Below, in pieces: positions 445 to 30,173 of a DNA stretch of 64,000 nucleotides. The DNA lies in NCBI GenBank assembly GCA_964406665.1, contig CAYOSQ010000007.1, forward strand, positions 11,364 through 75,363, given 5' to 3'. Positions within the stretch are counted from its first letter, which is position 1; the number at the start of each line of letters is the position of its first letter. The notes under the pieces are model-generated. The model was not told where the DNA came from, made no database searches, and saw only the letters and a program-made list of their open reading frames with translations. The stretch comes from an uncultured Planctomycetia bacterium. GTDB lineage: Bacteria > Omnitrophota > Gorgyraeia > VGKH01 > JBHPFN01. The position numbers and the translations under genes are program-made.

Positions 445-1599
445 TTAACTCCCCTCTATTATTCCTTCATAAAAAGAAAAGTCATGATCTGTATAGGTGA
501 AACCCTTACTTTCAGATATTCTAATTCCATCTTTTTTAGGTTCTAAACCAATGAGCTTCATATCATAATCAACCATTATTTTAACAAGTTCTTCAAAGTT
601 TATTCTTGGCTCCCAATTAAGCAAGTTCTTTGCTTTTGATGCATCCGCATTAAGATGCTCGGCTTCAGTTGGTCTGAAGTACCTGGGGTCTATTTCGATT
701 AAAGTATCACCTGATTTTAGAACTGAGTTCCATTCCTTATCAATTGATTTGATTATTCCTTTTTCCTTTTCTTCTCGACCTTTCCATTCTATTTCTATGC
801 CTATATAACTAAACGCTGTTTGTAAAAATTCTCTTACCGAATGGCTCTCCCCCGTACCCACAACATAATCATCAGGGTTATCCTGCTGCAGCATAAGCCA
901 CATTGTCTCAACGTACTCCGGGGCAAATCCCCAATCTCTCCTAGCATCAAGATTTCCTAAGTAAATTTTTCTTTGTTTTCCTGCAAGCATATTTGCTATC
1001 GCACGGGTTATTTTCCTTGTAACAAAGGTTTCACCCCTTCTTGGGCTTTCATGATTAAAAAGTATGCCGTTACAGGCAAAAATATTGTAGGCTTCTCGAT
1101 AATTTACAGTCATCCAATAAGCATAAACCTTTGCAATCGCATATGGGCTACGAGGATAAAAAGGAGTTTCCTCATTTTGCGGAGCATCAGCAGCACCAAA
1201 CATCTCTGATGAAGAAGATTGATAAAGCTTTGATTTTATTCCGCTTCTTCTTATCGCTTCAAGAATCCTTGTACACCCTAATCCGGTAATGTTGCCGGTA
1301 AACTCCGGCATATCGAAAGAAACTCTTACATGAGACTGAGCACCAAGATGATAAATCTCATCTGGTCTAATTTTCCAAATGATCTCAGTTATTAATCCAG
1401 GATCAGATAAATCACCATAATGAAGAAACAGTCTTGTGTTTGGTTGATGCGGATCCTTATATATATGATCTATTCTATGTGTATTAAATGTCGAGGCTCT
1501 TCTAATTATACCGTGTACTTCATACTTCTTTGATAAAAGAAATTCAGTTAAGTACGAGCCATCTTGCCCGGTTATACCAGTTATCAACGCTTTTTTCAT
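445..1599 (-). CDS. gmd: GDP-mannose 4,6-dehydratase
   Basis: N-terminus [22 protein letters not shown] and the whole 384 aa are collinear with Gmd (extended SDR; the YxxxK active site sits in ...[10 protein letters not shown]...). Confidence 0.92.
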
Positions 1600-7855: not shown

Positions 7856-9554
7856 TGATAAAACACTCCCTTTTTAAATAATCTGAACTTGAATCACATA
7901 GCGCCCATTCTGCAAATTCATATAAATCCTCAGCATTTTTGAGCTCATCCAACGAATGTATCGTTGGTAGTAAATTATGATCAAGTGGATGCACTCCCTT
8001 TTTCTTATAATTAAATTCTGCCTTGAAGCTTTTCATCTCCCACAGACGTAGATTAAAAATCGCATAAGCATGTTTTTTTGCAAGCATCATTTGCTCTTCT
8101 GTTAGCTGAGAAAATTCATGGATATGTTTTAGTTTATCGAGATATTGCTCTCGAGAATCAGAATCAATAGTAAAGCCAAAACCTGAGTACCTTCCCGTCC
8201 CTGCAGTAAAAACCGGCTTCCCGAAACAAGGAAGCTCCATACCCACAGTTCCTCGGACTGTAATACCGTAATCTGCTAACTCAAACAGCGAAAATGAATT
8301 AATGTCAGTATCTGGATGCAGCAAGAATATGTGTGCAGGCAATTCTCCAACTTTTTCTCTTATTAGAAATACCTCTCTTAATTCTCCGGATATCTTCTCG
8401 CGATTCCTCTTCCACACGTTTCCAGGATGAAGTTTAATTATCCAATTTACATTAGGATTTAAAACAGCCACTTTTACAGTTTCAATAAACCATTCCTCAT
8501 AATCCTCGAAAAGATCATCACCATAAAATAAATTAGCATCCCAAAGTATATGAGAAAACAAGACTGCAGTCTTCTTTTGTGAATCTATTCCTAATTGCGA
8601 GACTATCTCTTGCTTACTCTTCTTTTGTTTTCCTTGTTGATTTCTTCGACTCAAAAACCATATCCCTCCATAACGCTTCTCGAATTCATCAAGTACGGCA
8701 CTCTCCTGTTCCTGGCCCCATGGCATTGTCTTTATTTTCTCAAACGTCGAAGGTGAAAGCGAATTTGGATGCGACCCCATCGATTCCTTGTCAAATCGCT
8801 TGAAGGTCACCGCGTCATCTCGCAGTGGTTGGACAAATTGTATTACATCCATCTGTCTATTAAATGCTAAATCGGATATACCACCATATACCGAACCTTT
8901 TGCTTCGTTAAAAATAAGCATATCAGGATTTATTTCATCTAAAAGCATGCCTGAGGCATAAATTGTTTTTATTTCATCACGCAGCAAAAAACCGAAAAGT
9001 TCATGCAGCTTAGGATGAGCTAAATCAGGTGTTCCGTGCAAACGCCTAGCGAATGAGCTTAAAATCTGTTGACCTAAATGACAATTCTTGAACTTCCATT
9101 GCTTCACTTCTTGAAAGCTTATCTTTTTCTGCAAAAATTCTTCCGCGACACCCTCAACCTCCTCATTCTTCACGCGAGAAATAAAATCTTCTAAATATAC
9201 GAATTTACTTATTCCAAAAGATCGAAAATACTTCTGGGGCCAGACGCAATGCTTATAAGTCACAACAGTTATATCACACCCTCGAAGCTGCAAGGCTTTT
9301 GCAAACGTTGCCTCTTTTTTAACCTGATAGAGAAACTGCGTAAGGCTAACTATGCATACTTTTTTATTTATTAATTGCTCTGGAACTTCTTTAAAAAAAC
9401 TAAACTTCTTTTCAAGAATTGCATAATCGTGAACGATAGCCAATCGATGAAGAATGTTCCAATTGTTTTTAATCAATTGCAACTTTAGCTTCAACCACGG
9501 CATACCTGAAATAAATCTTGATAATCTTTCTCTTGCCCTCTTTATAATCATCAC
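7836..9554 (-). CDS. Capsule_synth-family protein (KpsC/KpsS/LpsZ-like beta-Kdo-transferase family), tentative
   Basis: ...VLFSHILWDANLFYGDD...IIKLHPGN... resembles the conserved KpsC/KpsS core (..fPLQvnxDsQi...lvvKhHPxd). The domain boundaries could not be checked. Confidence 0.4.
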   Translation of the reverse strand: MMIIKRARERLSRFISGMPWLKLKLQLIKNNWNILHRLAIVHDYAILEKKFSFFKEVPEQLINKKVCIVSLTQFLYQVKKEATFAKALQLRGCDITVVTYKHCVWPQKYFRSFGISKFVYLEDFISRVKNEEVEGVAEEFLQKKISFQEVKQWKFKNCHLGQQILSSFARRLHGTPDLAHPKLHELFGFLLRDEIKTIYASGMLLDEINPDMLIFNEAKGSVYGGISDLAFNRQMDVIQFVQPLRDDAVTFKRFDKESMGSHPNSLSPSTFEKIKTMPWGQEQESAVLDEFEKRYGGIWFLSRRNQQGKQKKSKQEIVSQLGIDSQKKTAVLFSHILWDANLFYGDDLFEDYEEWFIETVKVAVLNPNVNWIIKLHPGNVWKRNREKISGELREVFLIREKVGELPAHIFLLHPDTDINSFSLFELADYGITVRGTVGMELPCFGKPVFTAGTGRYSGFGFTIDSDSREQYLDKLKHIHEFSQLTEEQMMLAKKHAYAIFNLRLWEMKSFKAEFNYKKKGVHPLDHNLLPTIHSLDELKNAEDLYEFAEWALCDSSSDYLKRECFISARCSS

Positions 9555-12019
9555 ATAAGCTCCAAAAAATCACTGCTGATTTTCTTTGCAGCTATATTAA
9601 ATTCAAAAAGTTCCTCAAATGTAGCACGACCATTTTCGGCCAAGACTTCCTGCAATTCTTTATTATGCAATAATTCAATAATACTTTCCCCTATTTCTTC
9701 TGGATTACTTGCAGTCAATGCGTTTTTTCTATGTACCATATCTGGCATTCCCAAAGTATTAGCACTATGTGTTACCACAGGGCAGCCTAAGGACCATGCC
9801 GTAACAATACGCGTCCTATTGCCCAAAGGTATAGGATTTGGCACAAACATCAAATCCGCTGATTGCATATCATCCTTTATAGGATTAACCTGCCCCCTTA
9901 AAATTATATCTTTGCGCTGAGCGCATATTTCTTTGAGACAGGGTTCTGTATTAAAAGTGTGTCCAAGAAAATGTACTTCGAACCTGTCTCTCCCTAAATG
10001 TTTATCCAAAAAAGGCAATATAACGCGCACAAAATCATGAATACCCGGGCGATTAGCTGTGCCTCCGGTATTGCCGACATGAATCAATTTGTATTTTCGA
10101 TTAACAGAGTTCTTTTTCTTTCTCTGGTCTCGCCAAGTCCCCCCAGCTAAATCAGCTACCGGACCACGATAATACTTACAGCCTCGACCATCCACACGAC
10201 CAAACCATTCTGCATGATGCTTAGCTATTGCTCCTCGCCTAGCCGTTCTTCTAATCATACACTTCAATCTTCTATTTATCGTAAAATTGTAAACAGCAGT
10301 AATAAGCGCACTTCTTATATTTCTGATTAAACTTTTATTTGGTAAATTAAACCGCCAAGAATACCAGCGTACCAGATGATACGGATCTCCAAAAAAAGCA
10401 AAGATAGGAATATTATCGATATTCTTTAGCGACAATAATCCATCATAACTGCATGCAAAAATTGCTTCTGGGCCCAAGTTTTGAATAAGTTCTTTTACCT
10501 GATCAGACACCAAAAAATAAGGAACCAGTTTATCAAGAATATTTCGAGGCTTGTTATTAGGAAAAATTAAATGAACCTTAGCACCCTGAGATTCTAGGTT
10601 GACAACCAGTTCTTTAATATTTGTTTTAAACTCATCAGAAACAATGCAGCAGATATCAGGTTTTAAGCCTAGACTCAAGAAACCCTTAACAACTTCATAC
10701 GTGGTTATAGAGAAACCCCCAAAGCTCGGATTGGGAATGAAATCTGTCACTACACAAAACGACGTCTTCTTACTTTGATTATTATGCTCAGATGAAGGAA
10801 AAGATTTTTCTTCAAACAAAGAATCGACAATAATTGGGATATTTATTTGTGGGTTAAAGTACTTAATCCATGCTTTTCTACTATTTTCACCAATATTTTT
10901 CATGCATTGAGGATTACCTTTCACTGTTTTTAATCTTACAGATATCTCTTCAGGAGAATCAGAATACATAATATCCCTCTCTGGTACGAGTTCTGGAAGA
11001 CCGCCAGCAACCGAGCTATCTGCAATAACAGGTATTCCATACGATAGTGCTGTTATAATTCTAGTCCTGACCCCAACAGAATATTTCAAAAGCGATAGAA
11101 AAATATCTGCGTTTAAAAACTCTGACTCCAAAGTATCAAGATGCCCAAGAAACTTTAAATCAATATTACTCCATTTTGATTTAACCATGTGCTTCTTCTC
11201 GCATTTTCCTACAAATCGTACTTCAAACTCATAAGGCAGCCGAGATATTACTGGAAAAACTTCTTTATATAAATAATTGAGTGCTTTTCTTCCTGCTGTG
11301 GAATAAAGAGAACCCACGTGTAATGCTATTATTTTATTATCTAAAGAGCCATCTCTATAAGCGGTTTTTGCCTTTACTGGCTCTGGTGTAAAAAATCTAT
11401 AATGACGGCATGGAATCCCATAATTTTGCAACTCCTCGGATTGGTGTAAAGGAAAACTTCCTATTGCGAATCTTTCCCCATTGAAAATACTTAACTCCTT
11501 TTTAAGACGATTATTAACGTTTTTTAAACTCTCTTTACAAATCCACCCCTTCCATGAGCTTGGCTTTAGGAATGAATACGAGCCTCCCAAGGCCATCCTG
11601 TGTTGCAAAGGATCACCTAACATACATACCCGTGGAACCTTTAGTTCAGTTAAAGCTAATGCCCAACCTGCATCCAGCGACAAACAACCGTCTACTTGCT
11701 GCAATTCAAGACAATTTTCCTCTATTGACTGCTTACAGACTTCAAATTGATGAGCTTCTAGAAAATATCGCCATCCAAATATTAATCTTTTTTGCTTGTG
11801 TTCATATACAAAGTGATACTTTAACCCCTTCTCTTCCAAGTTACGCAAGTATTGTAAATCGCTGTGCTTATCTAAGAAATCTTCATTGACTCTAAAAAAA
11901 GCACTAACTTCATAATCATTTCTTACCAAATAGTCACAGGCAAGATAATTAAAAATGCCAGAGCCTCCCTGGGTAGGATCTGGTACTCCTGTTGAAAAGA
12001 ATGCTATCTTTTTTTTCAT
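9551..12019 (-). CDS. Tandem two-domain GT4 glycosyltransferase (WbdA-like architecture)
   Basis: 822 aa. The N-terminal half starts MKKKIAFFSTGVPDPTQGGSGIFNY (GT4 N-domain). The second half restarts with SFCVVTDFIPNPSFGGFSITTYEVVKG (a second GT-B unit). Confidence 0.7.
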   Translation of the reverse strand: MKKKIAFFSTGVPDPTQGGSGIFNYLACDYLVRNDYEVSAFFRVNEDFLDKHSDLQYLRNLEEKGLKYHFVYEHKQKRLIFGWRYFLEAHQFEVCKQSIEENCLELQQVDGCLSLDAGWALALTELKVPRVCMLGDPLQHRMALGGSYSFLKPSSWKGWICKESLKNVNNRLKKELSIFNGERFAIGSFPLHQSEELQNYGIPCRHYRFFTPEPVKAKTAYRDGSLDNKIIALHVGSLYSTAGRKALNYLYKEVFPVISRLPYEFEVRFVGKCEKKHMVKSKWSNIDLKFLGHLDTLESEFLNADIFLSLLKYSVGVRTRIITALSYGIPVIADSSVAGGLPELVPERDIMYSDSPEEISVRLKTVKGNPQCMKNIGENSRKAWIKYFNPQINIPIIVDSLFEEKSFPSSEHNNQSKKTSFCVVTDFIPNPSFGGFSITTYEVVKGFLSLGLKPDICCIVSDEFKTNIKELVVNLESQGAKVHLIFPNNKPRNILDKLVPYFLVSDQVKELIQNLGPEAIFACSYDGLLSLKNIDNIPIFAFFGDPYHLVRWYSWRFNLPNKSLIRNIRSALITAVYNFTINRRLKCMIRRTARRGAIAKHHAEWFGRVDGRGCKYYRGPVADLAGGTWRDQRKKKNSVNRKYKLIHVGNTGGTANRPGIHDFVRVILPFLDKHLGRDRFEVHFLGHTFNTEPCLKEICAQRKDIILRGQVNPIKDDMQSADLMFVPNPIPLGNRTRIVTAWSLGCPVVTHSANTLGMPDMVHRKNALTASNPEEIGESIIELLHNKELQEVLAENGRATFEELFEFNIAAKKISSDFLELM

Positions 12020-12021
12020 TT

Positions 12022-12585
12022 TTAATAATGATCCGGTGGATATAGATGTTTAACACATTCAACGTTTAAACTCATATAAACACCATTGTCAAAATCCTTG
12101 TGCGGCCAATATGCTTTAGAGAAATCATCAACATTTGCATGTTCGGTTTTTCTCCAATCATATTCCACCACGCGCTTAAACCCTGCCTCTATTAAAAGAG
12201 TTTTAAGTCCAGAAAATGCAAACTGCCTGTAGTGGATATTCGTATCGGTCTCTGATCCCCCGTATATCCAGTTTAAAAGATTTTCATAGTCACCTGATCT
12301 TTTATAAACCTCAACAGTGCCTTCCCAATCAGGAACAGCCATTCTTAACACCCCTCCTGGTTTTAATACGCGGTTCCATTCAAGGAGAGTTTTAAATGTC
12401 TTTGGTCTTGGCAAATGCTCTAAAACATGGCAGGCATATATCAGATCCACTGAGTCTTTTTCAAAAGAATCCAGCTTAGAGATATCGCACTTTATGATAT
12501 CAGCACCGGGGACATCTCTAATATCAATATTAGTAAATCCTTTTAGAATCTTATCCCCACAACCTAAATGCAGTTTTTTTGCCAT
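12022..12585 (-). CDS. Class I SAM-dependent methyltransferase (Methyltransf_11/23-like)
   Basis: Motif I LHLGCGDKILKGFTNIDI, an acidic loop, and motif post-I LKPGGVL. Confidence 0.75.
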   Translation of the reverse strand: MAKKLHLGCGDKILKGFTNIDIRDVPGADIIKCDISKLDSFEKDSVDLIYACHVLEHLPRPKTFKTLLEWNRVLKPGGVLRMAVPDWEGTVEVYKRSGDYENLLNWIYGGSETDTNIHYRQFAFSGLKTLLIEAGFKRVVEYDWRKTEHANVDDFSKAYWPHKDFDNGVYMSLNVECVKHLYPPDHY

Positions 12586-12597
12586 TGCTTTCTCCTT

Positions 12598-13710
12598 CTA
12601 TAATTTTTTGAAAACATCTCTCCATATTTTTAAACCATTAACAACGTTGTCAAAAAGCTTGTGGTCTTTTTTAAATTCTTTGCATACTTTCTTTATTTCA
12701 TTAGGAAACTGTTCAGAAATTTCAGAAAAAACTGACTTATAGTTATTCGATGTCATCTTGCAAAAGCTAAGCGCTTTTAAAAAAACATCCGTATGTTCTA
12801 AACCAAATCTCTCATCATCAAAATCTTTAAAATAATTATGAGGATTTCTATCTTGATTTACCAAAGGAGATCCATAAGTAACATAGTCACCAAGAAAGTC
12901 AGAAATGTGCCGCACTACAAAACTTGCCCAGATGTCATCATAGCGCCCTAGATAAGGAAGTAAAAAGTATGCTGGAATTATATCGCGCGATAATGCTGTA
13001 TTCTGAGAATTAAAAGGAGACCATGTGCCAATATCGCAGGCAATTTTATGCTGAAAGTTGTTGCTTTTTTTCGCATCATCAATGGGAAAATTCAAATTAG
13101 TAATTGCATCTACATCAGGCGCACCAAACCAAAGACCGGCATTTACTACAACACGTCCTTCTCGAGAAACAATCGACCTATTGGCAAAGGTTGCTTCAGT
13201 ACGTTTCGATAAAGGAAAACCCCTATGGAAAAAAGGCATTTTAAATTTTCCTGATTCTAACATTTCACATACATTCCACCAACCAGAAGAATTAGAAACA
13301 GCTTGCAGTTTTTGTGCTTCCCCGATATGGCCGTGCAAACCCAGATAGTCAGGTTGATTCAAAAAATTATCATCGTCAATTATTGCAACTATATCCGAAC
13401 CAGATTCATAAGCCATCAATATGGCGATGTTACGGCGCTGCACACAATTCCAGGGAATAAATTTAGCTAGACTTGGCCATCTTTTTAAATAATCCTCCTG
13501 CTCTTGAGGAGAAACAAGCTTACACTCAATATCAAATTTTTTCTCAAGCCCTTTACAAAATGAATAAGCCTCATCAGGTGTTTTTTTATCAGCAGCGATA
13601 ATTACATTTTGAAGATTTCTCTTAAATTTAATTGCATCTTTTATGTACGACTCAAAAAGTAGCGGAACATTTATGGTTGTCGTAACAAGGCTAAACGTTT
13701 TACCTTTCAC
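12598..13710 (-). CDS. Reversibly-glycosylated-polypeptide (RGP / UDP-arabinopyranose mutase, GT75) family homologue
   Basis: Collinear motif matches to plant RGP1 (cited from memory; sequence shown first, RGP1 second). IVAIIDDDNF matches IFTIDDDCF. HRGFPLSKRTEA matches RGYPFSLREGV. AGLWFGAPDVDA matches HGLWLNIPDYDA. GRYDDIWASFVVRHISDFLG matches [20 protein letters not shown]. Confidence 0.6.
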   Translation of the reverse strand: MKGKTFSLVTTTINVPLLFESYIKDAIKFKRNLQNVIIAADKKTPDEAYSFCKGLEKKFDIECKLVSPQEQEDYLKRWPSLAKFIPWNCVQRRNIAILMAYESGSDIVAIIDDDNFLNQPDYLGLHGHIGEAQKLQAVSNSSGWWNVCEMLESGKFKMPFFHRGFPLSKRTEATFANRSIVSREGRVVVNAGLWFGAPDVDAITNLNFPIDDAKKSNNFQHKIACDIGTWSPFNSQNTALSRDIIPAYFLLPYLGRYDDIWASFVVRHISDFLGDYVTYGSPLVNQDRNPHNYFKDFDDERFGLEHTDVFLKALSFCKMTSNNYKSVFSEISEQFPNEIKKVCKEFKKDHKLFDNVVNGLKIWRDVFKKL

Positions 13711-13722
13711 TAAGCATTCCTT

Positions 13723-14487
13723 TCATTTTCTTACAAAATGAACTAATGACGCTATTTGCGCCACCTTATGCACACAGTCAGTATCTTCTAATTCTCTCAT
13801 AAGTCTTCTAATATCATCATGACCAGTAGAATCAACGCGCGCATCAGCAGCATCATGAAACAAAACATGTCCTCCGGGCTTTACTGAAGAAATCCAGTGC
13901 TCGTAATCTTTCTTCACTCCTTCATATGAATGGTCTCCGTCAATAAACAATAAATCGCAACTAATCTTGCTATTATCGTAAGATGTGCTGTCAGCTACAA
14001 TAATCTCTACTTTTTCTCTCATGCCAATTTTCTTTAGAATTTCCTCAAATTCTTCATCATAACTTTTCTCCACCTCTTTTAACATCATCTTCACATGAAG
14101 ATCTAAAGAAATAAGCCTCCCTCTCTGCATTGCTGAGGCGATTAGGAATGACGAACCACCTTTAAAACGACCTATCTCAACACAGGTAGGTGCAGATAAT
14201 GATCTTACCAACTTAAATAGATAACTGGCTTCATCTAAATCCATTCTCAATATTCCCCGATTAAGAGGTGAGGACCAAAACAAAAAACATAGATCTTCAA
14301 ATCCTTTTATTTTCTCAGGAACTTTAATATTCGAAAATCTCACTGCAAGATTATGTTCTCTGCCGAGTGCTTCCATGCATTCATATTTAAATTGGGGAGC
14401 TATCCACGCAAAGACCTTTCTCCCAACTGGATTCAAAAATAATTTCTTTATTGTGTTTTTTATGAATTGCTTCATCTTTTTAGTCAA
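13723..14487 (-). CDS. SAM-dependent O-methyltransferase (TylF/MycF, Methyltransf_24-like)
   Basis: CVEIGRFKGGSSF ... FIDGDHSYEGVKKDYEHW...GGHVLFHDA, the typical TylF/CmcI-type fold signature. Confidence 0.65.
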   Translation of the reverse strand: MTKKMKQFIKNTIKKLFLNPVGRKVFAWIAPQFKYECMEALGREHNLAVRFSNIKVPEKIKGFEDLCFLFWSSPLNRGILRMDLDEASYLFKLVRSLSAPTCVEIGRFKGGSSFLIASAMQRGRLISLDLHVKMMLKEVEKSYDEEFEEILKKIGMREKVEIIVADSTSYDNSKISCDLLFIDGDHSYEGVKKDYEHWISSVKPGGHVLFHDAADARVDSTGHDDIRRLMRELEDTDCVHKVAQIASLVHFVRK

Positions 14488-15185
14488 ATCTTCAAAAAAT
14501 ACTCAGCCATTCTTATGTCTTCTTCCGAATCAATATCAACACTTTCACTTTTCTCCATCAGATATGGAACAATTGAATCACCGTACATGCTTTTTTTGTT
14601 TAAGATGCAATCATACGTAAAAACTAAAACAGCAGGCCCATTTCTAGCAAAGAGTTTCGGTTTATTTTGGCGTAGATTTTCTTTCTCATCAATATCTTTA
14701 ACTGTATAAAGCTTATCATCTTCAACTCTCATCAAGCTATCAGGAACATAGTTATGAGGCACCTCGACAACACTTACAACAGAATCAGCGCCTGAATTTA
14801 TTAACTTCTCTAGCGCCTCACTAATATGCTCAGCTTTTCTAAGTGGAGATGTAGGCTGAAGCAATGCAACATAATCAGGCTGATAATTCTCATTTTCTTT
14901 TAAAAAATTAATAGCGTGTTGCACAACATCAATCATGGGAGCATTATCATCTGAATATTCCCCCGGGCGCTTAAACGGTACATCGATTCCCCGATTCTGG
15001 CAATAGTTAATGATCTTATCGTCATCACTTGAAAGAATGATCTTTGAAAGTATTTTGCTGGACTTTGCAGCATCTATAGTGAATTGAATTAGTGGTTTCC
15101 CGCATAATTCAATCATATTTTTTCCAGGAATACCCTTAGACCCTCCGCGCGCTGGGATAATTGCTAAAATTTCTTTATTTTTCAT
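14484..15185 (-). CDS. neuA: Acylneuraminate (nonulosonate) cytidylyltransferase, CMP-NeuAc synthetase family
   Basis: ILAIIPARGGSKGIPGKN is the P-loop-like CTP site of NeuA/KdsB-type enzymes. Overlaps neuC by 1 nt. Confidence 0.85.
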   Translation of the reverse strand: MKNKEILAIIPARGGSKGIPGKNMIELCGKPLIQFTIDAAKSSKILSKIILSSDDDKIINYCQNRGIDVPFKRPGEYSDDNAPMIDVVQHAINFLKENENYQPDYVALLQPTSPLRKAEHISEALEKLINSGADSVVSVVEVPHNYVPDSLMRVEDDKLYTVKDIDEKENLRQNKPKLFARNGPAVLVFTYDCILNKKSMYGDSIVPYLMEKSESVDIDSEEDIRMAEYFLKI

Positions 15186-16369
15186 CAGTATCTTATCCTT
15201 TTCTGTACAGGAACTTTTGATAAATTCAACTTCTTTAATATTGCAACAATTCTTTTACCTGCACTTCCATCTCCATAGATAAAATCAGGTTTATATTTGC
15301 CATGATTAATCTGTTTTTTTATAGCATCAACAATTTGTTTCTTGTTGTATTTAACATTCTTGACGTTTTTTCCTCTTGATCGACCTTGCTGCCTACTTCC
15401 AATATTAACAGCTGGAACACCAATAATAGCTCCTTCCCTAATAGCGCTGCTAGAATTACCTATAAGACAACTACATTTATCCATCAAATGAATATATACT
15501 TCTGTAGGCAAATTTGTAAACACATGAAGCCAACTGTCAGGCTTGAATTTTTCTCTAAATGATCTAATCTCCTTTGAAGTCTCATCAGAACCTGCATCAG
15601 CGTTTGGCCACAACATGATCGTAGGCATGTTTAAATCTTTCAATGCCATCAAAGTCTCATGCATGTTCTTTCTATTGTCGCCATATTCTGTAGTTACTGG
15701 ATGCTGTGAAACCAAAAGAAACTTCTCCTCTAGAAACCTGAAGTTACCGCCGACACCTTTATGCTTCTTCCAAAATTCTTTTTCTGAAAAGCTTCTTTTT
15801 TTGCTTAAAATATCCTTAACTAAATCAACTCGGGGACACCCAACAGGAAAAACATATTTTTTATCTTCACCCATCTTAATAATTCTTTCTGCAGCTTTTT
15901 TGTTTGCAGGAAAATGTATGTGTGAAAATTTTGTCACAGCATGACGAATACTTTCATCAATTGTTCCAGAAACCTCTCCACCCATTGTGTGAACAATGTG
16001 GATATTCATATATGACGCTGCGACTGCAGTAGCAATAGTTTCAAACCTATCTCCAACAGTAATAACCAAATCGGGTTTATGATTCATGAAAAGTCCCGAC
16101 AACTCAATAATACCTAAACCAGCAGACATGGCCATGGTTTGAGGATTCTCTCCTTCAACAAGAATGTAAAATTTCTCGGTTATCTTGAAGCCGTCTTTTT
16201 CGATTAGATTAACCATCCTGCCATATCTTTCAAGCAAAGCAGAGGCGCCAACGAATATTAACAGCTCAAGATTAGGGCTTTTACGAATTTCTTCCATCAC
16301 AGATTTAATACTTGAATAGTTTGCTCTACTACCGATAACAACAGCTATTTTTTTTCGTTTCTTTCTCAT
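15185..16369 (-). CDS. neuC: UDP-N-acetylglucosamine 2-epimerase, hydrolysing type (NeuC/LegG-like)
   Basis: KIAVVIGSRANYSSIKSVMEEIRK...LELLIFVGASALLERYG ... HTMGGEVSG... is collinear with NeuC. Confidence 0.8.
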   Translation of the reverse strand: MRKKRKKIAVVIGSRANYSSIKSVMEEIRKSPNLELLIFVGASALLERYGRMVNLIEKDGFKITEKFYILVEGENPQTMAMSAGLGIIELSGLFMNHKPDLVITVGDRFETIATAVAASYMNIHIVHTMGGEVSGTIDESIRHAVTKFSHIHFPANKKAAERIIKMGEDKKYVFPVGCPRVDLVKDILSKKRSFSEKEFWKKHKGVGGNFRFLEEKFLLVSQHPVTTEYGDNRKNMHETLMALKDLNMPTIMLWPNADAGSDETSKEIRSFREKFKPDSWLHVFTNLPTEVYIHLMDKCSCLIGNSSSAIREGAIIGVPAVNIGSRQQGRSRGKNVKNVKYNKKQIVDAIKKQINHGKYKPDFIYGDGSAGKRIVAILKKLNLSKVPVQKRIRY

Positions 16370-16381
16370 TTATTATCAAGC

Positions 16382-17392
16382 TCACTTTCTTTCGATAATA
16401 TTCTCTTGTCGGTATGTTTCGATAATTTCAAATCTGGGCTCCTTAATATTTTCCACCTTCTTAAAAACACACCATACGTTCCAATCAGGATCAATAGATT
16501 GCGTCACGCACGATTCTATTCGCTGAAAAAAACCAACGAATTTTCTGAATTGATTAAAACCTCTTTCGCCTAAAAGTACCTGCAGACGATTTTTTATTGA
16601 AGACTTTCTTTGCTGAATAACTTCTTGATTAATCTGACTCGCATCACTTTTTTTTCGCTTTTTTTTAGAGAGAACTAAATTGACAATGTTTTGTTTTCCT
16701 AAAGTAATGCGGAGCAAAGCAGTGACAATGAACTTACGAAAATGATAGAACAAAAAGAATCGAAAAGGAATGATAGCGCCGATCCAGGTTACCTTATATT
16801 TTGTAGGTACGTAAGGAATAGCATGGCCCCTTTTATTCTGCATAATCGCTTTCTCTAAGACAAAACCATTAGCCCTGTAGAAATCGATTAAGAAATTGGG
16901 CGATGGATTTAAATAAAACCTGTTCGTCATATCTCCCAACACTGAAACAACCATAATTTTTCCGCCAATTTTAACCATGCTGGCAGTGTTGAAAAATGCC
17001 TGGATTGCATTCATGGCATAATGCGCTGATACATTAAGCATGAAATCATATTTATTCTCTAGTTCACTAGGAATAGGATAATTTAAATTGAATAAAACGT
17101 CTGCTCGTTTATTTATATCAAGCTCTTCATAAATCTTATACCCATAATGTTGAAACAATTTTGCGCAAAGTCGCTTGCTTGATCTATTTCTCTCTTCTCC
17201 AATTGCAGAATAGTGATTTTTTAGATCATCATCTTTAATGGTATTAATACCGTATTTTTTCAAACAGTTTTTCGTAACATGAAAATCCATAGTTCCAATA
17301 GTCAAAAACTTAAGATCTCTACCTGCAATCTCAGGCCTTATACTGCCTTCTAGTACATTAAAAGCATTAACTAAAGAATTTGCAACACCCAT
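16382..17392 (-). CDS. Hypothetical protein (possibly a Rossmann-like modifying enzyme)
   Basis: 336-aa ORF tightly packed between neuC and neuB. No confident motif. Confidence 0.45.
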   Translation of the reverse strand: MGVANSLVNAFNVLEGSIRPEIAGRDLKFLTIGTMDFHVTKNCLKKYGINTIKDDDLKNHYSAIGEERNRSSKRLCAKLFQHYGYKIYEELDINKRADVLFNLNYPIPSELENKYDFMLNVSAHYAMNAIQAFFNTASMVKIGGKIMVVSVLGDMTNRFYLNPSPNFLIDFYRANGFVLEKAIMQNKRGHAIPYVPTKYKVTWIGAIIPFRFFLFYHFRKFIVTALLRITLGKQNIVNLVLSKKKRKKSDASQINQEVIQQRKSSIKNRLQVLLGERGFNQFRKFVGFFQRIESCVTQSIDPDWNVWCVFKKVENIKEPRFEIIETYRQENIIERK

Positions 17393-17394
17393 AA

Positions 17395-18429
17395 TTACAC
17401 CTTTTTAACCAACATACTGTCTTTAATCTTTGTATTAGCCGAAATATCTATTTTTGTCTCTCTTCCGATAATTTCCCTATATCTATCAGCTCGTATACCA
17501 TCACCGGGCTTTTTGAAAGCCAACTTATCAAAAGTAATTTCCTCGCCTTTTGGAATATCCTGCTTAGCAACAATGCTTTTCTCAAAAACGACCTTAATTC
17601 CTTTTAACTCTTCAACAAGCTGATCTTTATTCACATTTAAGAAATTTTTATCATCAACAACTCCTAAAGCACCATCTTTGACTTCTTCTACAAATTTACT
17701 GAATTCATCAGGAAGCAATGAATGCTTTGCATCAGAACCCTGCAAATTCTGTGATAAAGTAAGGTGCCGCTCAATAACTTCAGCCCCTGAAGTAATTGCT
17801 GCAAATGAGGCATCGTTTTTGAGCGTGTGATCAGAAAACCCAACTCGACAACCATATCGCTGCTTCATTTCAGGCATTATGTTTATCCCAACCTTATTTT
17901 CTGGGCACGGATACAGCGAGGTACACTGCATTACTGTTAAATCTACACATCCGCTGCTTCGTAATGTTTCTACAGCATTATCTATCTCTTTCCATGAGCT
18001 CATTCCGGATGAAAGTAAAACAGGCTTCCCTAATGGGCCGATTTTCTCCAACAATGGTAAATTTGTAACTTCTCCTGATGGTATTTTATATCTCTCAACC
18101 CCAACATCTTCTAATAAATCAACGGCTTCAAGAGAAAAAACTGACGACATAAATTCAATATTGCGCTTCTGTGAATACTCCCTTAGCTCTTTCCATTCTT
18201 CTGCTGTAAAAGCTGTCCGCTCAAGATAATTTTTACGGCTTTCCTGTGCATAAAAACTTGGCGTAGGAGCATCGGGTAAACTTTCAGCATCAAAAATATG
18301 TGTTTGAAACTTAACCGCATCTGCTCCACACTCAGCAGCAGTTTTTACAAAATCTTTGGCTGACTCTACTGAACCATTATGTAGATTACCAACCTCAGCA
18401 ATTATAAAGATACTATTTTTCTCAGCCAT
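17395..18429 (-). CDS. neuB: N-acetylneuraminate (nonulosonate) synthase
   Basis: IFIIAEVGNLHNGSVESAKDFVKTAAECGADAVKFQTH is the NeuB TIM-barrel signature. The C-terminal SAF-like domain ...KQDIPKGEEITFDKLAFKKPG... is present. Confidence 0.9.
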   Translation of the reverse strand: MAEKNSIFIIAEVGNLHNGSVESAKDFVKTAAECGADAVKFQTHIFDAESLPDAPTPSFYAQESRKNYLERTAFTAEEWKELREYSQKRNIEFMSSVFSLEAVDLLEDVGVERYKIPSGEVTNLPLLEKIGPLGKPVLLSSGMSSWKEIDNAVETLRSSGCVDLTVMQCTSLYPCPENKVGINIMPEMKQRYGCRVGFSDHTLKNDASFAAITSGAEVIERHLTLSQNLQGSDAKHSLLPDEFSKFVEEVKDGALGVVDDKNFLNVNKDQLVEELKGIKVVFEKSIVAKQDIPKGEEITFDKLAFKKPGDGIRADRYREIIGRETKIDISANTKIKDSMLVKKV

Positions 18430-22728: not shown

Positions 22729-23835
22729 TTAGATATATTCCATCAATTTCATACAATCCTTAACAATAATGTCCATATTGTCATAGTGGTATTTACCCAT
22801 CCTGCCAATGGAATAACAATCTTCTGGTAACAAAGCAAGATACTTATTGGCTTTTCTTATTTCCGATTTAAGTGGATAAGGATAAAGCTTGTTACCGAAA
22901 GATGGAAATTCAACCACTATTAATGTATCTGGAGATTTATATCCGGTCAAAAGCTTATATTCCATAACCCTTGTATAGGGCTCATCACCTGCATAATGCA
23001 AATAGTAATACGGCTCCGGGGTAACCTGCTTACAAGGTAAGATTATCTTTAAGAAGTCTCTACCGATATATTTAAGCTCACCGAATTTATAATCAAACAC
23101 CAGATCTATCGATGCTGAAGAAACAACAATATCAGCCGAAAACCACTTCCCCTTAACTAAAACTCTCTTTTTCTTTAAATTGAATTTCTCTACATAAGAA
23201 TTATAAATCACCTTACAACCTTCAACACATCTATCAAAATAAGAGTTATACCCATCAAGCTCAACTGGATAGGCAATAATCTTCTTCTTATCAAAGCATT
23301 GCTTAGAGCCCTGCTTTAATGCAACGCCTTTTGGAGAGAAAGAAAATTCATCTATGCTTCTGTTGTCTTTCATTTGCCACATCTTTTCAGAATATTTATG
23401 TATAAATTTATCATAAAGCGTTTTTCCCACAGAACGGATCCAGTAATCTTCAAAGTTTTTTGCAGATTTGATATCCTTTCTCTTTAGAAGCTCTCTATAA
23501 ACCCTATCTTTATCTGGCATACCATTAATCTCAGCTTTGTGAATTGGATATGTATAAAACTTGTTATCATCAGATACATAAGTTAAACAATGGTGTTTAA
23601 GTTTGCGTAACTTCAAAAATTTACTGAAATAATCCCAAACATACATCTCCTTCAGATCAATCAGAAGATGGCGTGGTCCGTAAGTGAAAGGATGACCATG
23701 ATAGAAGTACGTTCTACACCCTCCTCCTAGCTCATGACTTGCCTCCACAATTGTTACGTTAAAACCTTTTTGCTTTAACATATATGCGGCAGTGCAACCG
23801 GCAAATCCACCGCCAACTACCAAAGCTTTTTTCAT
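22729..23835 (-). CDS. glf: UDP-galactopyranose mutase
   Basis: MKKALVVGGGFAGCTAAYMLKQKGFNVTIVEASHELGGG (FAD site) and FDYKFGELKYIGRDF ... GRMGKYHYDNMDIIV are collinear with E. coli Glf. Confidence 0.85.
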   Translation of the reverse strand: MKKALVVGGGFAGCTAAYMLKQKGFNVTIVEASHELGGGCRTYFYHGHPFTYGPRHLLIDLKEMYVWDYFSKFLKLRKLKHHCLTYVSDDNKFYTYPIHKAEINGMPDKDRVYRELLKRKDIKSAKNFEDYWIRSVGKTLYDKFIHKYSEKMWQMKDNRSIDEFSFSPKGVALKQGSKQCFDKKKIIAYPVELDGYNSYFDRCVEGCKVIYNSYVEKFNLKKKRVLVKGKWFSADIVVSSASIDLVFDYKFGELKYIGRDFLKIILPCKQVTPEPYYYLHYAGDEPYTRVMEYKLLTGYKSPDTLIVVEFPSFGNKLYPYPLKSEIRKANKYLALLPEDCYSIGRMGKYHYDNMDIIVKDCMKLMEYI

Positions 23836-23898: not shown

Positions 23899-24850
23899 AT
23901 CCGGAAAACTTTTCATAAAACTTATTTGATTTAGGGAATTCCTCATCAAATAAATTCTTATATGTTGAATAAACCTCATTCTTATTTGTAGATGGAAGAG
24001 ATAGCATATATTTAAATAAAAACGCGATCTTTTCTTTTAATTTCTTAAATAACGGATCGTTTTTAAAACCATCAAATTTAACTTTTTTCTGATCTTTTGC
24101 TCGCTGCATTAAATAAATCGCAATATCAGTTGCATTATTATTCATAAGAAACAACCCCAGCAAAACAACGTTCTCTGCAATTTTTGTGCTATTTTGCTTA
24201 AAAATAATCTCCGGATCTCTGATCCACACTGTCTCACACCCAATTAGTTGTCCATATTTATTCGGAAGGGTGAACTTGCTTAATGCGTGGCCTCGTCCAT
24301 CATAGTTTAGGTTTATTAATTCGAATTTATGCTCTTTTAAGAAATTATGAATGTCTCCAAATAAAGGTGCACCTATATATACCGGAAGAAAATATGTCTC
24401 CAGCCTAATACCCAATACAGTTGAGTCGAGAACGCTTTCTGCTCCTTTTAGAACCTCTAATTCTGTTCCCTCTGTATCGATTTTTAAAAAATGAATATCT
24501 TTATTATGAAATATCGAATCAATTGTTTTAACTGCTACTTTCTTCTCCGAAACAATATCGGCTTCATTTACCATAAACATTTTCTTTTTTCTTAAGGCAG
24601 AATCATTGCTCAAGATTGAGCTTAAGCCATTATGAGCTCTTTGCTTAAAGTTCACCTTACCATCAGAGCTATAGAGCCCCTGGGAATAAACTTCAATATT
24701 CCTATTATCCGCATATTTTTTCCTTAAACGCAAAGCTTCTTTAAAATCCATTTCAAATAGATGAAAATTAGCAATGTCACACAGCTCTTTCCATGTTGGA
24801 TGCAACCCGTAACGCGCTCCCACATCAATAACATTACATTTTAATTTCAT
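23897..24850 (-). CDS. FkbM-family methyltransferase
   Basis: NVIDVGARYGLHPTWKE ... FkbM-type motif. 317 aa. Confidence 0.7.
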   Translation of the reverse strand: MKLKCNVIDVGARYGLHPTWKELCDIANFHLFEMDFKEALRLRKKYADNRNIEVYSQGLYSSDGKVNFKQRAHNGLSSILSNDSALRKKKMFMVNEADIVSEKKVAVKTIDSIFHNKDIHFLKIDTEGTELEVLKGAESVLDSTVLGIRLETYFLPVYIGAPLFGDIHNFLKEHKFELINLNYDGRGHALSKFTLPNKYGQLIGCETVWIRDPEIIFKQNSTKIAENVVLLGLFLMNNNATDIAIYLMQRAKDQKKVKFDGFKNDPLFKKLKEKIAFLFKYMLSLPSTNKNEVYSTYKNLFDEEFPKSNKFYEKFSG

Positions 24851-28467: not shown

Positions 28468-28474
28468 GACTACC

Positions 28475-30171: not shown

Positions 30172-30173
30172 AG

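Follow-up and report, generated by a model that had tools for sequence, protein, structure and literature searches.

A GT75 gene in a glycan operon

The window, a 64-kb stretch of DNA from an uncultured member of the Omnitrophota, carries a glycan operon in which one gene encodes a protein of the RGP/GT75 family (hereafter GT75). Its open reading frame occupies exactly positions 12598..13710 on the minus strand, begins with GTG and has an AAGGAA ribosome-binding site 6 nt 5' of that codon; 12 nt separate the GTG from the stop codon of the upstream gene, and homologues align from residue ~5 of the predicted protein. The translation includes DIVAIIDDDNF, HRGFPLSKRTEA, AGLWFGAPDVDA, GRYDDIWASFVVRHISDFLG and RNPHNYF, and all the motif blocks quoted in a first-pass annotation, which had already placed the protein in a glycan locus, are thus present. 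Similarity to known proteins is far beyond chance, which rules out a fortuitous open reading frame, and the two plus-strand frames that overlap the gene (12317..12742 and 13058..13348) were dismissed as antisense by-products. An identical protein is encoded on short metagenome contigs from the same organism, which carry no further gene context.

GT75 lies between two methyltransferase genes (Table 1). The downstream methyltransferase has a ribosome-binding site of its own (AAGGAGA), and its orthologues in other organisms form the C-terminal domain of proteins in which GT75 and a methyltransferase are fused. It shares 52-59% identity with the fused domains of P0074/79/85/109/110 and 60% with L023, and a fused form also occurs in L012. 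Linkage of the upstream methyltransferase to GT75 was seen only in contigs of this organism. Searched against the PDB, the two flanking proteins gave generic class-I methyltransferase matches only (E 1e-5 or weaker), and neither matched an NCBIfam model. For the double GT4 protein encoded next, the N-terminal half has orthologues immediately 3' of GT75 in the two closest relatives (40% identity to L010 and 32% to L007), which makes it the candidate transferase for the product of the predicted mutase.

Several other genes in the window bear on which sugar might be used. The genes for Gmd and Fcl are found 11 kb from GT75, in a different operon and beyond an intervening plus-strand protease gene; the Fcl fragment scores 205 bits (E=2e-60) against NF047922 over profile positions 2-141 of 308. 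The gene previously labelled glf does encode a member of the UGM family, as its product aligns over its full length with solved UGMs (best E=2.4e-26), but the specific Glf label does not hold, its score being below the TIGR00031 equivalog cut-off of 303.75 bits. It is possibly, judging from sequence, a second, FAD-type NDP-sugar ring mutase, and the earlier suggestion that the glycan of this locus contains two different furanoses is a possible one. The locus also encodes radical SAM enzymes and a split transketolase, which, together with the FAD-type mutase-like gene, mean that the actual substrate of GT75 could be an unusual sugar.

Table 1. Genes of the window discussed in the text (positions within the window)
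Position	Strand	Product	Size	Remarks
1..436	-	GDP-L-fucose synthase (Fcl), N-terminal part	145 aa	Gene extends past the window edge
445..1599	-	GDP-mannose 4,6-dehydratase (Gmd), true equivalog		Pfam 482 bits; TIGR01472 548 bits vs cut-off of 415
9551..12019	-	Double GT4 glycosyltransferase	822 aa	Candidate transferase; N-terminal half has orthologues next to GT75 in relatives
12022..12585	-	Class-I SAM methyltransferase (Methyltransf_11)	187 aa	12 nt downstream of GT75
12598..13710	-	GT75 (MtdL-type), predicted NDP-pyranose/furanose mutase	370 aa	Assigned by homology, fold and residues
13723..14487	-	Methyltransf_24/O-methyltransferase-like protein	254 aa	Adjoins GT75 upstream, same operon
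22729..23835	-	Divergent UGM-family flavoprotein (earlier 'glf')		TIGR00031 115.3 bits

GT75 resembles MtdL over its full length

Two bacterial GT75 enzymes serve as reference points, MtdL from the A201A pathway of Marinactinospora thermotolerans and Hyg20 from the hygromycin A pathway of Streptomyces hygroscopicus. They are GDP-L-galactose/GDP-L-fucose pyranose-furanose mutases, for which the structures 7XPR, 7XPS, 7XPT, 7XPU and 7YUA are available. Both enzymes have been characterized biochemically and structurally, and both accept GDP-L-Fuc and GDP-L-Gal (PMC9937993), which contradicts the earlier view that bacterial members of the family are uncharacterized. In the literature that we searched, we found neither other characterized bacterial GT75 enzymes nor a GT75-type heptose mutase.

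Family membership was confirmed by the Pfam RGP profile (PF03214), which GT75 matches with 29.8 bits, above the gathering threshold of 23.8. This match is limited to residues 183-364, corresponding to profile positions 151-338 of 342. The STELLO profile scores 26.1 bits, under its threshold of 27.8, and a search of NCBIfam found no model for GT75, with a single spurious match of 14.8 bits. By contrast with these partial matches, a phmmer search of the PDB aligned residues 35-332 with MtdL (E=1.8e-42), and a profile built from the clade aligned residues 5-366 with residues 7-371 of MtdL (E=7e-74). Identity between the two proteins is ~30% (26-30%, depending on the alignment). For the comparison with plants, rice UAM (8CID) was used as the nearest proxy for Arabidopsis RGP1. 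It matches the clade profile with E=3e-7 and only in the C-terminal half (profile positions 184-363), and its structural alignment with GT75 gives 14% identity.

The fold leads to the same placement. An AlphaFold (AF2) model of GT75, with a pLDDT of 95.4, consists of a GT-A Rossmann-like N-terminal domain, a family-specific core and a C-terminal helical domain. As assessed by Foldseek, this model superposes on MtdL (7XPR) with a TM-score of 0.89 and an rmsd of 2.2 Å. Rice UAM comes next among the solved folds, with TM-scores of 0.62-0.67, and folds outside GT75, generic GT-A folds included, reach 0.44 at most. The superposition with MtdL covers the whole chain, including the C-terminal part, described as a core and helical region that is unique to MtdL (PMC9937993). 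The product of 12598..13710 is a full-length homologue of MtdL within bacterial GT75, and the description 'plant-type' given to it initially is not supported, since in E-value it is ~67 orders of magnitude closer to MtdL than to a plant UAM.

These comparisons already weigh on two other readings of the gene. The first, proposed in the first-pass annotation, takes GT75 for a plant-like UDP-L-arabinopyranose (or UDP-galactopyranose) mutase that would supply UDP-L-arabinofuranose to the glycan. The above-threshold RGP match and the rank of rice UAM among solved folds favor it, and the confinement of the plant match to the C-terminal half speaks against it, as do the residues and genes described below; overall we regard it as very improbable. 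The second is that GT75 is no mutase, but either an ordinary GT-A glycosyltransferase or a primer protein that glycosylates itself on arginine, resembling the STELLO or class-2 RGP proteins without mutase activity. The sub-threshold STELLO match is in keeping with such a role, as is the fact that GT75 proteins autoglycosylate and that some plant members (AtRGP5) have no mutase activity. The extension of the superposition into the part of MtdL that is unique to it argues against it, and in light of the residue conservation and gene linkage presented below we consider a non-mutase role very improbable.

Catalytic residues are conserved and the sugar pocket is altered

The residues of GT75 that are key in a comparison with MtdL are T11, I13, D41, K43, C89, V90, R93, D112-D113-D114 and N115 in the N-terminal part, and R163, D199, S235, Q236, R256, D259, Q286, R288 and H291 in the remainder. 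None of the 120 close homologues deviates at the equivalents of MtdL R90, D109-D111, N112, R159, D195, Q229, R257, D260 and R289, and the same set is kept in 242 of the 257 sequences of a wider homologue set. The invariant residues include the DDD metal motif correctly pointed out in the initial annotation, D112-D113-D114, and the adjoining N115. R163, which corresponds to the proposed nucleophile R159 of MtdL, lies within an HRGFP motif and is invariant as well. D259 and D199, the counterparts of the general-base Asp260 and the orienting Asp195, are conserved, as are Q236, R256, R288 and H291, which correspond to the substrate-binding Gln229, Arg257, Arg289 and His292. In MtdL, mutagenesis has shown that D109, R159, D195, Q229, R257 and D260 are required for activity (PMC9937993). 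GT75 and MtdL have in common their fold, the DDD motif, the proposed nucleophilic Arg, the general-base Asp, a second Asp, a Ser-Gln pair, and two Arg and one His that bind phosphate. The catalytic Arg, Asp and DDD are also common to plant GT75 (PMC9937993), a similarity on which the UDP-arabinose reading can draw. Indeed, plant RGP/UAM proteins (AtRGP1-3, OsUAM1/3 and rice UAM2, 8CID) belong to the same superfamily, share the proposed Arg/Asp/DDD machinery, and carry out the metal-dependent, flavin-free ring contraction that we predict for GT75.

The positions that select the base distinguish GT75 from the plant enzymes. T11 and I13 align with T13 and I15 of MtdL, D41 with D40, and C89 with S86, a position occupied by Cys or Ser across the clade. 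Two key base-selection positions are Thr and Ser in GDP-specific MtdL, but Pro and Asp in UDP-specific plant RGPs, and in MtdL the T13P change weakened GDP binding and S86D abolished it (PMC9937993). At both of these positions GT75 is of the GDP type, with Thr11 and a small residue, Cys89, unlike the plant UDP type, which argues against UDP-L-arabinopyranose as the substrate. The third base-contact residue, N42 in MtdL, is Lys43 in GT75. The plant enzymes have Asp at this position, as they do at MtdL position 86, and Pro at position 13 (PMC9937993). Lys43 is neither GDP-type nor UDP-type, and its difference from the MtdL residue gives the UDP-arabinose reading some room.

Two departures from MtdL affect the sugar and metal sites. 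Asp87 of MtdL is replaced by Val90, and this position is Ile, Val or Leu in 116 of 120 homologues, so that the polar residue touching O4/O6 of the sugar is absent; in MtdL, the changes D87N and D87S each eliminate activity. Gln286 takes the place of the Mn ligand His287, and Gln is found in 119/120 close homologues. The residues at the two positions co-vary in the wider homologue set, and the subclade has a pocket of its own, with Val/Ile at Asp87 and Gln at His287, whereas the plant enzymes keep the His and have Ser at position 87. Because of these substitutions, the activity and metal dependence of MtdL are not simply transferable to GT75. Among the Arabidopsis proteins, the active AtRGP1-3 retain the Mn-ligand His and the inactive AtRGP5 has lost it, a parallel that would suit a non-mutase role. 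On the other hand, Arg256 (MtdL R257), which AtRGP5 has also lost, is invariant in the clade, and the almost uniform presence of Gln286 indicates selection rather than decay. Gln286 could itself serve as a metal ligand, to judge from the alignment. The possibility of a decayed pseudo-enzyme was rejected in view of the conservation across the clade. At the hydrophobic dimer interface of MtdL, on the helix that follows loop A, L295 and L298 are replaced by the hydrophobic F294 and F297, and V302 by Arg301.

Bacterial relatives are widespread and linked to GDP-sugar genes

Rather than being rare, as had been assumed, bacterial relatives of GT75 are numerous. There are 2154 homologues in the database, and relatives are present in at least 505 species genomes, mostly from uncultured organisms, and form 2337 clusters at 50% identity. 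The best relative among GTDB representative genomes shares 56% identity with GT75, and the species of the window is not itself one of them; its placement in Candidatus Omnitrophota was deduced from PilC homologues, every one of which belongs to that group.

The neighborhoods of these relatives point to GDP-linked sugars. An extended SDR is encoded directly upstream of GT75 in 26-27 of 75 loci (27 by ORF labels, 26 by classification of loci), and among proteins of solved structure it is closest to GDP-mannose 3,5-epimerases (E=3e-24). In two cases (L036 and P0125) GT75 is fused to a GME/Fcl-like SDR, and Fcl-like genes are located immediately 5' of GT75 in L052, L057 and L060, and at most 3 kb away in L062. 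A partnership with enzymes that make L-configured GDP-sugars is a feature shared with MtdL, which is supplied by GME activity in A201A biosynthesis (PMC6678494). In at least 15 loci, GT75 is part of complete GDP-6-deoxyheptose cassettes encoding HddA, HddC-GmhB, a Gmd-like dehydratase, an RmlD-like reductase and a cupin. Both arrangements weigh against a non-mutase role, since relatives are fused or adjacent to SDRs that form nucleotide sugars, and in the cassettes GT75 sits between the synthesis and tailoring genes. The linkage to GDP-sugar enzymes likewise disfavors UDP-arabinose, and among the annotated ORFs of 150 aa or more that the window contains we recognized none for UDP-glucose dehydrogenase, UDP-xylose synthase or UDP-xylose 4-epimerase, i.e. 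no gene of the UDP-GlcA, UDP-Xyl and UDP-Ara pathway. From the first-pass name 'UDP-arabinopyranose mutase', a pyranose-furanose mutase is thus probably to be retained, and UDP-L-arabinopyranose is not, given Thr11/Cys89, the GDP-sugar linkage and the presence of gmd and fcl.

The relatives also raise the question of whether an MtdL-type mutase would act here on a sugar other than GDP-L-fucose, such as GDP-L-galactose, another Gmd-derived GDP-6-deoxyhexose, or an unusual sugar built by the locus. Most relatives are partnered by a GME-like SDR rather than Fcl, and the subclades wired to GDP-heptoses show that members of the clade differ in the sugar they are specific for. The departure of the pocket from MtdL at D87 and the amount of unexplained tailoring chemistry in the locus (radical SAM, transketolase and methyltransferase genes) point in the same direction. 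Against this, the GME-like SDR was not found in the 64-kb window by tblastn, where gmd and fcl are the only recognizable source of an L-galacto-configured GDP-sugar. In addition, Val at the D87 position is common to enzymes linked to Fcl, being present in all four loci with such a link as well as in the window, compared with 5/68 other loci, a correlation that comes from four loci and is uncorrected for phylogeny. The pocket residues H162/L167/Y257 are like those of the hexose (SDR) class, whereas the heptose class has P/W/F; a heptose-specific enzyme was rejected because this signature is absent. A different substrate is in our view unlikely.

Proposed function and mechanism

The explanation that best accounts for these findings is that GT75 is a mutase of the MtdL branch that would convert GDP-L-fucopyranose to GDP-L-fucofuranose for the glycan operon, to which we assign a rough probability of 0.68. 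Homology, fold, residue conservation and gene linkage were observed directly, whereas we infer that the protein is catalytically active, that it uses a metal, which substrate it acts on and what the methyltransferase does. Its parts are not equally firm. By analogy, GT75 is very probably a mutase of the MtdL mechanistic type, and its substrate is probably GDP-linked. The sugar is most likely L-galacto-configured, and its identification specifically as GDP-L-fucose is tentative, with a little under an even chance of being right.

GT75 would be a cytosolic, divalent-cation-dependent and flavin-independent NDP-sugar pyranose-to-furanose mutase. By analogy with MtdL, the DDD motif would hold the metal-diphosphate, with Gln286 in place of the His ligand. 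Asp259 would deprotonate Arg163, which would then attack C1 and displace GDP, generating an arginine-sugar adduct. The ring of this adduct would open and close again via O4, before renewed attack by GDP would release the furanose nucleotide. In the window, GDP-beta-L-fucopyranose would be provided by the nearby Gmd and Fcl, and the resulting GDP-L-fucofuranose would be consumed by glycosyltransferases of the operon, the first candidate being the N-terminal GT4 domain of the protein encoded at 9551..12019. The translationally coupled methyltransferase downstream of GT75 may take part in this step of the pathway, perhaps adding a methyl group to the furanose sugar and thereby pulling an equilibrium that favors the pyranose. 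That this methyltransferase acts on the nucleotide-furanose is a weaker proposition, which we think rather unlikely.

In comparison with MtdL, which belongs to an actinomycete antibiotic cluster, GT75 is part of a cell-surface/protein-glycan operon of an uncultured bacterium and is known from its sequence. It has Val for Asp87, Gln for His287 and Lys for Asn42, changes that are conserved throughout the subclade, and it is coupled, or fused in relatives, to a small SAM methyltransferase. A broader and more doubtful proposal is that the subclade represents a third active-site class of GT75, defined by Val/Ile + Gln as opposed to Asp + His in MtdL and Ser + His in plants, which would make GDP-furanoses for surface or N-linked glycans. 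Its hosts would include Omnitrophota, Patescibacteria, Acidobacteriota, gut Alphaproteobacteria and Melainabacteria, and its products might be L-fucofuranose in this organism and, in others, L-galactofuranose or 6-deoxyheptofuranoses. Within this lineage, the coupled or fused methyltransferase would then be the second enzyme of a 'contract-and-lock' device, methylating the nucleotide-furanose, e.g. at the hydroxyl freed by ring contraction, and so driving an unfavorable equilibrium forward.

To our knowledge, mammals lack furanose sugars, and very few types of enzyme produce them; we know of the flavin-free GT75 route in biochemical terms only from plants and two actinomycete antibiotic pathways. 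The FAD-type Glf/UGM family has the same net reaction as that predicted for GT75, from NDP-pyranose to NDP-furanose, and also occurs in surface-glycan loci, but its fold, cofactor and mechanism are unrelated, N5 of the reduced flavin taking the part of the arginine nucleophile and metal. Members of this family include the Campylobacter jejuni CDP-fucopyranose mutase HS41.17 and the predicted GDP-6-deoxyheptopyranose mutases HS10.16 and HS41.15. In the GDP-6-deoxyheptose cassettes of C. jejuni, the place of the mutase has been assigned to the FAD enzyme (PMC10680097), whereas the cassettes of our relatives have GT75 in that place. Some lineages would thus have GT75 at a step for which Campylobacter is presumed to rely on a flavoenzyme. 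The species distribution reported above indicates that the GT75 route is common in uncultured bacteria, and occurs in some archaea, where it would provide GDP-furanoses for envelope glycans. For the gene at 12598..13710, the annotation should accordingly read GDP-sugar (probably GDP-L-fucose) mutase instead of UDP-arabinose mutase. The conserved replacements at Asp87 and His287 amount to an experiment of nature on the proposed arginine-adduct mechanism, and the fusions with methyltransferases and SDRs suggest how pathways may be coupled and where biocatalysts for GDP-furanoses, which are scarce, might be found.

The GT75 protein belongs to the bacterial MtdL branch

The GT75 gene at 12598..13710 is an ORF with a GTG start, in exact agreement with the first-pass annotation, and all the motifs quoted there (DIVAIIDDDNF, HRGFPLSKRTEA, AGLWFGAPDVDA, GRYDDIWASFVVRHISDFLG, and RNPHNYF) are present in its translation. 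The start is credible because a ribosome-binding site (RBS), AAGGAA, lies 6 nt 5' of the GTG, 12 nt past the stop of the preceding gene, and because alignments with homologues begin at about residue 5. As assessed by profile searches, the RGP family (PF03214) matches residues 183-364 only, at 29.8 bits (gathering threshold 23.8). The STELLO profile scores just under its threshold, and an NCBIfam profile search returned no model for the protein.

Among solved structures, 7XPR, 7XPS, 7XPT, 7XPU, and 7YUA, all deposited under the title "Transglycosylse," match residues 35-332 (E = 1.8e-42). These entries are MtdL of Marinactinospora thermotolerans, a GT75 GDP-L-galactose/GDP-L-fucose pyranose-furanose mutase of the A201A pathway (PMC9937993). 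A clade profile made from 34 relatives of the window protein covers the full length of MtdL (E = 7e-74), whereas it matches rice UDP-arabinopyranose mutase (UAM; 8CID) in the C-terminal half only (E = 3e-7). Likewise, the AlphaFold2 model (mean pLDDT 95.4, pTM 0.94) superposes on MtdL with a TM score of 0.89 and an rmsd of 2.2 Å, versus TM scores of 0.62-0.67 on rice UAM2 (14% identity); those on generic GT-A glycosyltransferases are ≤0.44. The full-length profile match and the superposition on MtdL thus place the protein in the bacterial MtdL branch of the GT75 superfamily, and the label "plant-type" does not apply.

Nor are bacterial members rare, as had been thought. Homologues number 2154 in a word-indexed search, and 2337 clusters match at E ≤ 1e-3 (305 of these at E ≤ 1e-30) when cluster representatives are searched exhaustively. 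With each GTDB species represented by one genome, at least 505 genomes carry a relative. The matches listed include Patescibacteria/CPR, Acidobacteriota, Nitrospirota/Nitrospinota, gut Alphaproteobacteria, Elusimicrobia, Melainabacteria, Akkermansia, and archaea. The best 80 of these at least 505 genomes are all uncultured (79 MAGs and one single-cell-like assembly, L060). "Uncharacterised" is accurate for the subclade of the window protein but not for bacterial GT75 overall, since MtdL and its hygromycin A pathway counterpart Hyg20 have been characterised; our literature search found no characterised bacterial GT75 enzyme besides these two.

Active-site residues look GDP-type, with a distinct conserved pocket

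The window protein and 120 homologues were compared at the MtdL residues defined by crystallography and mutagenesis (PMC9937993). Invariant in all 120 are R93 (MtdL R90), D112-D113-D114-N115 (the DDD-N motif), R163 (R159), D199 (D195), Q236 (Q229), R256 (R257), D259 (D260), and R288 (R289), and S235 and H291 are nearly so. In MtdL, R159 is the autoglycosylated arginine and proposed nucleophile, and D260 the proposed general base (PMC9937993). The base contacts T11 (MtdL T13), I13 (I15), and D41 (D40) are invariant in the 34-sequence alignment, and C89 occupies the position of MtdL S86, where the clade has Cys or Ser. T13 and S86 are key base-selectivity sites in MtdL, GDP binding being weakened by T13P and abolished by S86D, and UDP-using plant RGPs have Pro and Asp at these positions (PMC9937993). 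With T11 and C89 at these sites, the window protein looks GDP-type. A plant-like UDP-Arap mutase, the activity originally assigned, is therefore very improbable: it would have to be reconciled with the weak C-terminal match to rice UAM, with Thr11/Cys89 instead of Pro/Asp, and with relatives that lie in GDP-sugar pathways.

Three other positions differ from MtdL, with consistent changes throughout the clade. The N42 position is Lys in 112 of the 120 homologues; at the D87 position the window protein has Val (V90) and 116/120 have Ile, Val, or Leu; and the position of the Mn2+ ligand H287 is Gln in 119/120. When the set is widened to 257 sequences, the residues at 87 and 287 are seen to co-vary: the majority read [C/S]-[I/V]...Q and a minority S/T-D...H, as in MtdL. 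This suggests structural or functional coupling of a sugar-contact residue with a metal ligand. The ten-residue catalytic core is complete in 242/257, and the clade pocket is a conserved alternative, not decay. That the protein is instead a non-mutase glycosyltransferase or a self-glycosylating protein has a very low probability, considering that the Gln replacing the metal-ligand His is under selection, that Arg256 is retained, and that the gene is tied to nucleotide-sugar synthesis rather than to acceptors. The window protein does not represent a novel type of system: as a member of GT75 it shares fold and catalytic core with MtdL, and its subclade differs from MtdL in the conserved pocket and metal site.

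GT75 relatives are found in GDP-sugar pathways

ORFs were called in the fetched loci around GT75 relatives (L0xx) and clustered with the window proteins. GT75 is its own ORF in 74 loci (75 with the window), and three recurrent architectures surround it, all of which are GDP-sugar pathways.

Architecture A is that of CPR, Acidobacteriota, Nitrospinota, and the closest relatives, L007-L009 (54-56% identity). Here the gene immediately 5' of GT75, on the same strand, encodes an extended SDR of ~355 aa (26-27 loci, from 27 labelled ORFs and 26 classed loci). A small GT2 usually precedes it (within 3 kb in 32 loci), and multi-pass membrane proteins, of PMT_2 type or other, are often nearby, as is a small SMR/EamA-like protein. 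The best solved relatives of this SDR are GDP-mannose 3,5-epimerases (GME; E = 3e-24), with other extended SDRs close behind and GDP-fucose synthases (Fcl) also high. SDR and GT75 are fused in L036 (5093..7258, 721 aa) and in the homologue P0125 (742 aa), which come from Saccharibacteria and a metagenome; such a fusion would be a bifunctional enzyme, forming an L-sugar and then contracting its ring. In CPR/Patescibacteria (L013-L016, L018, L022, L028, L034, L058, L065, L069, and others), a GT2 of ~240 aa precedes SDR-GT75, often with PMT_2-like/multi-pass membrane proteins and a 118-aa SMR/EamA-like protein around. By analogy, this layout is like polyprenol-phosphate-sugar routes (ArnC/ArnT/ArnEF-like), hinting at extracytoplasmic furanosylation.

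Architecture B (at least 15 loci in gut Alphaproteobacteria, Elusimicrobia, Melainabacteria, and Akkermansia) is a GDP-6-deoxyheptose cassette with the order Gmd-like dehydratase, HddA, HddC-GmhB fusion, GT75, RmlD-like reductase, and cupin. The GT75 of these cassettes has its own pocket signature, P162/W167/F257. In Campylobacter jejuni, FADH2-dependent mutases are credited with the corresponding GDP-6-deoxyheptofuranoses, among them the L-galacto isomer, which is the heptose analogue of L-fucose (PMC10680097; PMC12369002). In architecture B, GT75 therefore appears to be a non-orthologous replacement, which suggests a flavin-free GDP-6-deoxyheptofuranose route in place of the FAD mutase predicted in C. 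jejuni. Complete cassettes are seen in L037, L039, L043, L044, L047, L049, L050, L053-L055, L059, L061, L068, and L073, with GT75 at ~10001..11070 in most; the hosts are MAGs of gut/rumen Alphaproteobacteria, Elusimicrobia, Melainabacteria, Akkermansia, Phascolarctobacterium, and Succinivibrio (gut-associated and related lineages).

In architecture C, an Fcl-like gene is directly upstream of GT75 (L052, L057, and L060) or within 3 kb (L062). None of the literature searched describes the subclade's SDR and methyltransferase fusions or its contexts in GDP-heptose cassettes, polyprenol-type GT2/GT-C sets, or an Omnitrophota glycan operon near STT3.

A downstream methyltransferase and a GT4 domain are linked to GT75

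In the window, GT75 lies within ~30 co-directional genes (~3.1 to 34 kb), 12 nt from a Methyltransf_24 gene upstream and 12 nt from a Methyltransf_11 gene downstream, with a strong RBS at both junctions. The downstream methyltransferase (187 aa) is 52-59% identical to the C-terminal domains of five GT75 fusion proteins (P0074, P0079, P0085, P0109, and P0110), full-length in four and over its residues 4-88 only in P0085, and domain order in the fusions is gene order in the window. More orthologues, at or fused to GT75, are found in a Dehalococcoidia MAG (L023, 60%) and a Saccharibacteria MAG (L012), and L089 has the order SDR, GT75-methyltransferase fusion, GT2. By this Rosetta-stone evidence, the two proteins are predicted to act in one pathway. 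The first candidate for using the mutase product would be the N-terminal GT4 half of the protein encoded at 9551..12019; in L010 (40%) and L007 (32%), an orthologue of this half directly follows GT75.

GDP-L-fucose is the most likely substrate

Both the residues that select the base and the GDP-sugar context, which is universal, point to GDP as the probable nucleotide. MtdL and Hyg20 both use L-galacto-configured GDP-sugars, L-Gal and L-Fuc (PMC9937993), and in A201A biosynthesis GME activity supplies MtdL (PMC6678494). No GME-like SDR was found in the window. Its start encodes a true GDP-mannose 4,6-dehydratase (Gmd; 548 versus 415 bits) and the first 145 residues of a GDP-L-fucose synthase (205 bits, 141/308 profile positions, E = 2e-60), on the same strand as the glycan locus, with a plus-strand protease gene in between. 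The D87 position is Val in the window and in 4/4 Fcl-linked loci versus 5/68 other loci (naive Fisher p of 1.2e-4; the four Fcl-linked enzymes are only 43-53% identical to each other, but the test ignores phylogeny). The heptose signature is absent; the window protein has H162/L167/Y257, common to the SDR (hexose) class. Considering gmd and fcl without a GME-like SDR, the Val, the hexose-class pocket, and the MtdL/Hyg20 substrates, GDP-beta-L-fucopyranose to GDP-L-fucofuranose is the most likely reaction (probability roughly 0.4-0.45). The possibility that this MtdL-type mutase acts on some other sugar deserves serious consideration, albeit as an unlikely one; the options would be GDP-L-Gal, a second 6-deoxyhexose derived from the Gmd product, or an unusual sugar specific to the locus. 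For glycobiologists this gives a useful correction of the annotation and a lead that can be tested, with no surprise in principle.

By homology to the MtdL scheme, itself proposed but not proven, the metal-diphosphate would be held by D114, by D112 via water, and by Gln286 instead of His. Asp259 would take a proton from Arg163, which would attack C1 and expel GDP; the ring would open at O5 and close again through O4, before a second attack by GDP. NDP-sugar ring equilibria favour the pyranose, as stated for FAD enzymes (PMC12369002), so a coupled downstream step is expected. Speculatively, the fused/adjacent methyltransferase or the adjacent GT4 might pull the equilibrium.

The wider glycan locus

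The glycan run also encodes a flippase-GT2 fusion, several GT2 and GT4 enzymes, Capsule_synth-like and GT9-like proteins, six methyltransferases, four radical SAM enzymes, a split transketolase, a divergent UGM-like flavoprotein, and an ABC exporter.

Features of the window with their coordinates
Feature	Position	Strand	Length (aa)	Remarks
GT4-containing protein	9551..12019		822	
GT75	12598..13710	-	370	GTG start
Nonulosonic-acid module	14484..18429	-		directly upstream of GT75 block
Module protein	16382..17392		336	no family match
UGM-family flavoprotein	22729..23835	-		115 versus 304 bits (equivalog model)
Sugar-tailoring set	24847..32127	-		same operon
Transketolase, C-terminal part	28475..29389	-		
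Transketolase, N-terminal part	29386..30171	-		
Large ORF	39055..41142	+	496-723 (all four)	no Pfam family
Large ORF	44135..45967	-		no Pfam family
Large ORF	49324..50814	+		no Pfam family
Large ORF	50940..53111	+		no Pfam family
STT3-type oligosaccharyltransferase	54415..56883	+	822	Pfam STT3 73 bits; weak archaeal STT3 subfamily match
PilM-PilN fusion	58446..59909	-	487	type IV pilus cluster

The nonulosonic-acid module contains a true NeuC (402 versus 236 bits), a NeuB-like synthase under the NeuB and PseI cut-offs (339 versus 400 bits), and a PseF-like cytidylyltransferase below its cut-off; its product may be a sialic-acid-like sugar of uncertain type. The neighbour first named glf is indeed a full-length UGM homologue (E = 2.4e-26 to D. 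radiodurans UGM), but a divergent one by its equivalog score. It may act as an FAD-type mutase on a substrate other than UDP-Gal, as the C. jejuni CDP/GDP-sugar mutases do, and the glycan might contain a second furanose. The sugar-tailoring set, whose chemistry is unusual, comprises the split transketolase, a short SDR, several methyltransferases, and the four radical SAM enzymes, of which two have SPASM domains.

Beyond the glycan run are the STT3-type gene, further glycosyltransferases, and type IV pilus genes. By its PilC homologues the contig belongs to Candidatus Omnitrophota (71% and 68% identity to the best named matches), and the identical PilC and GT75 proteins both have 86,228 bp as their longest recorded contig, in line with one shared contig. 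As STT3 is ~20 kb from the operon, the locus might feed protein N-glycosylation, not LPS or capsule. The four Pfam-less large ORFs are interspersed with glycosyltransferase, peptidase, and STT3 genes, and the PilM-PilN fusion adjoins T2SSK-like and PilC genes.
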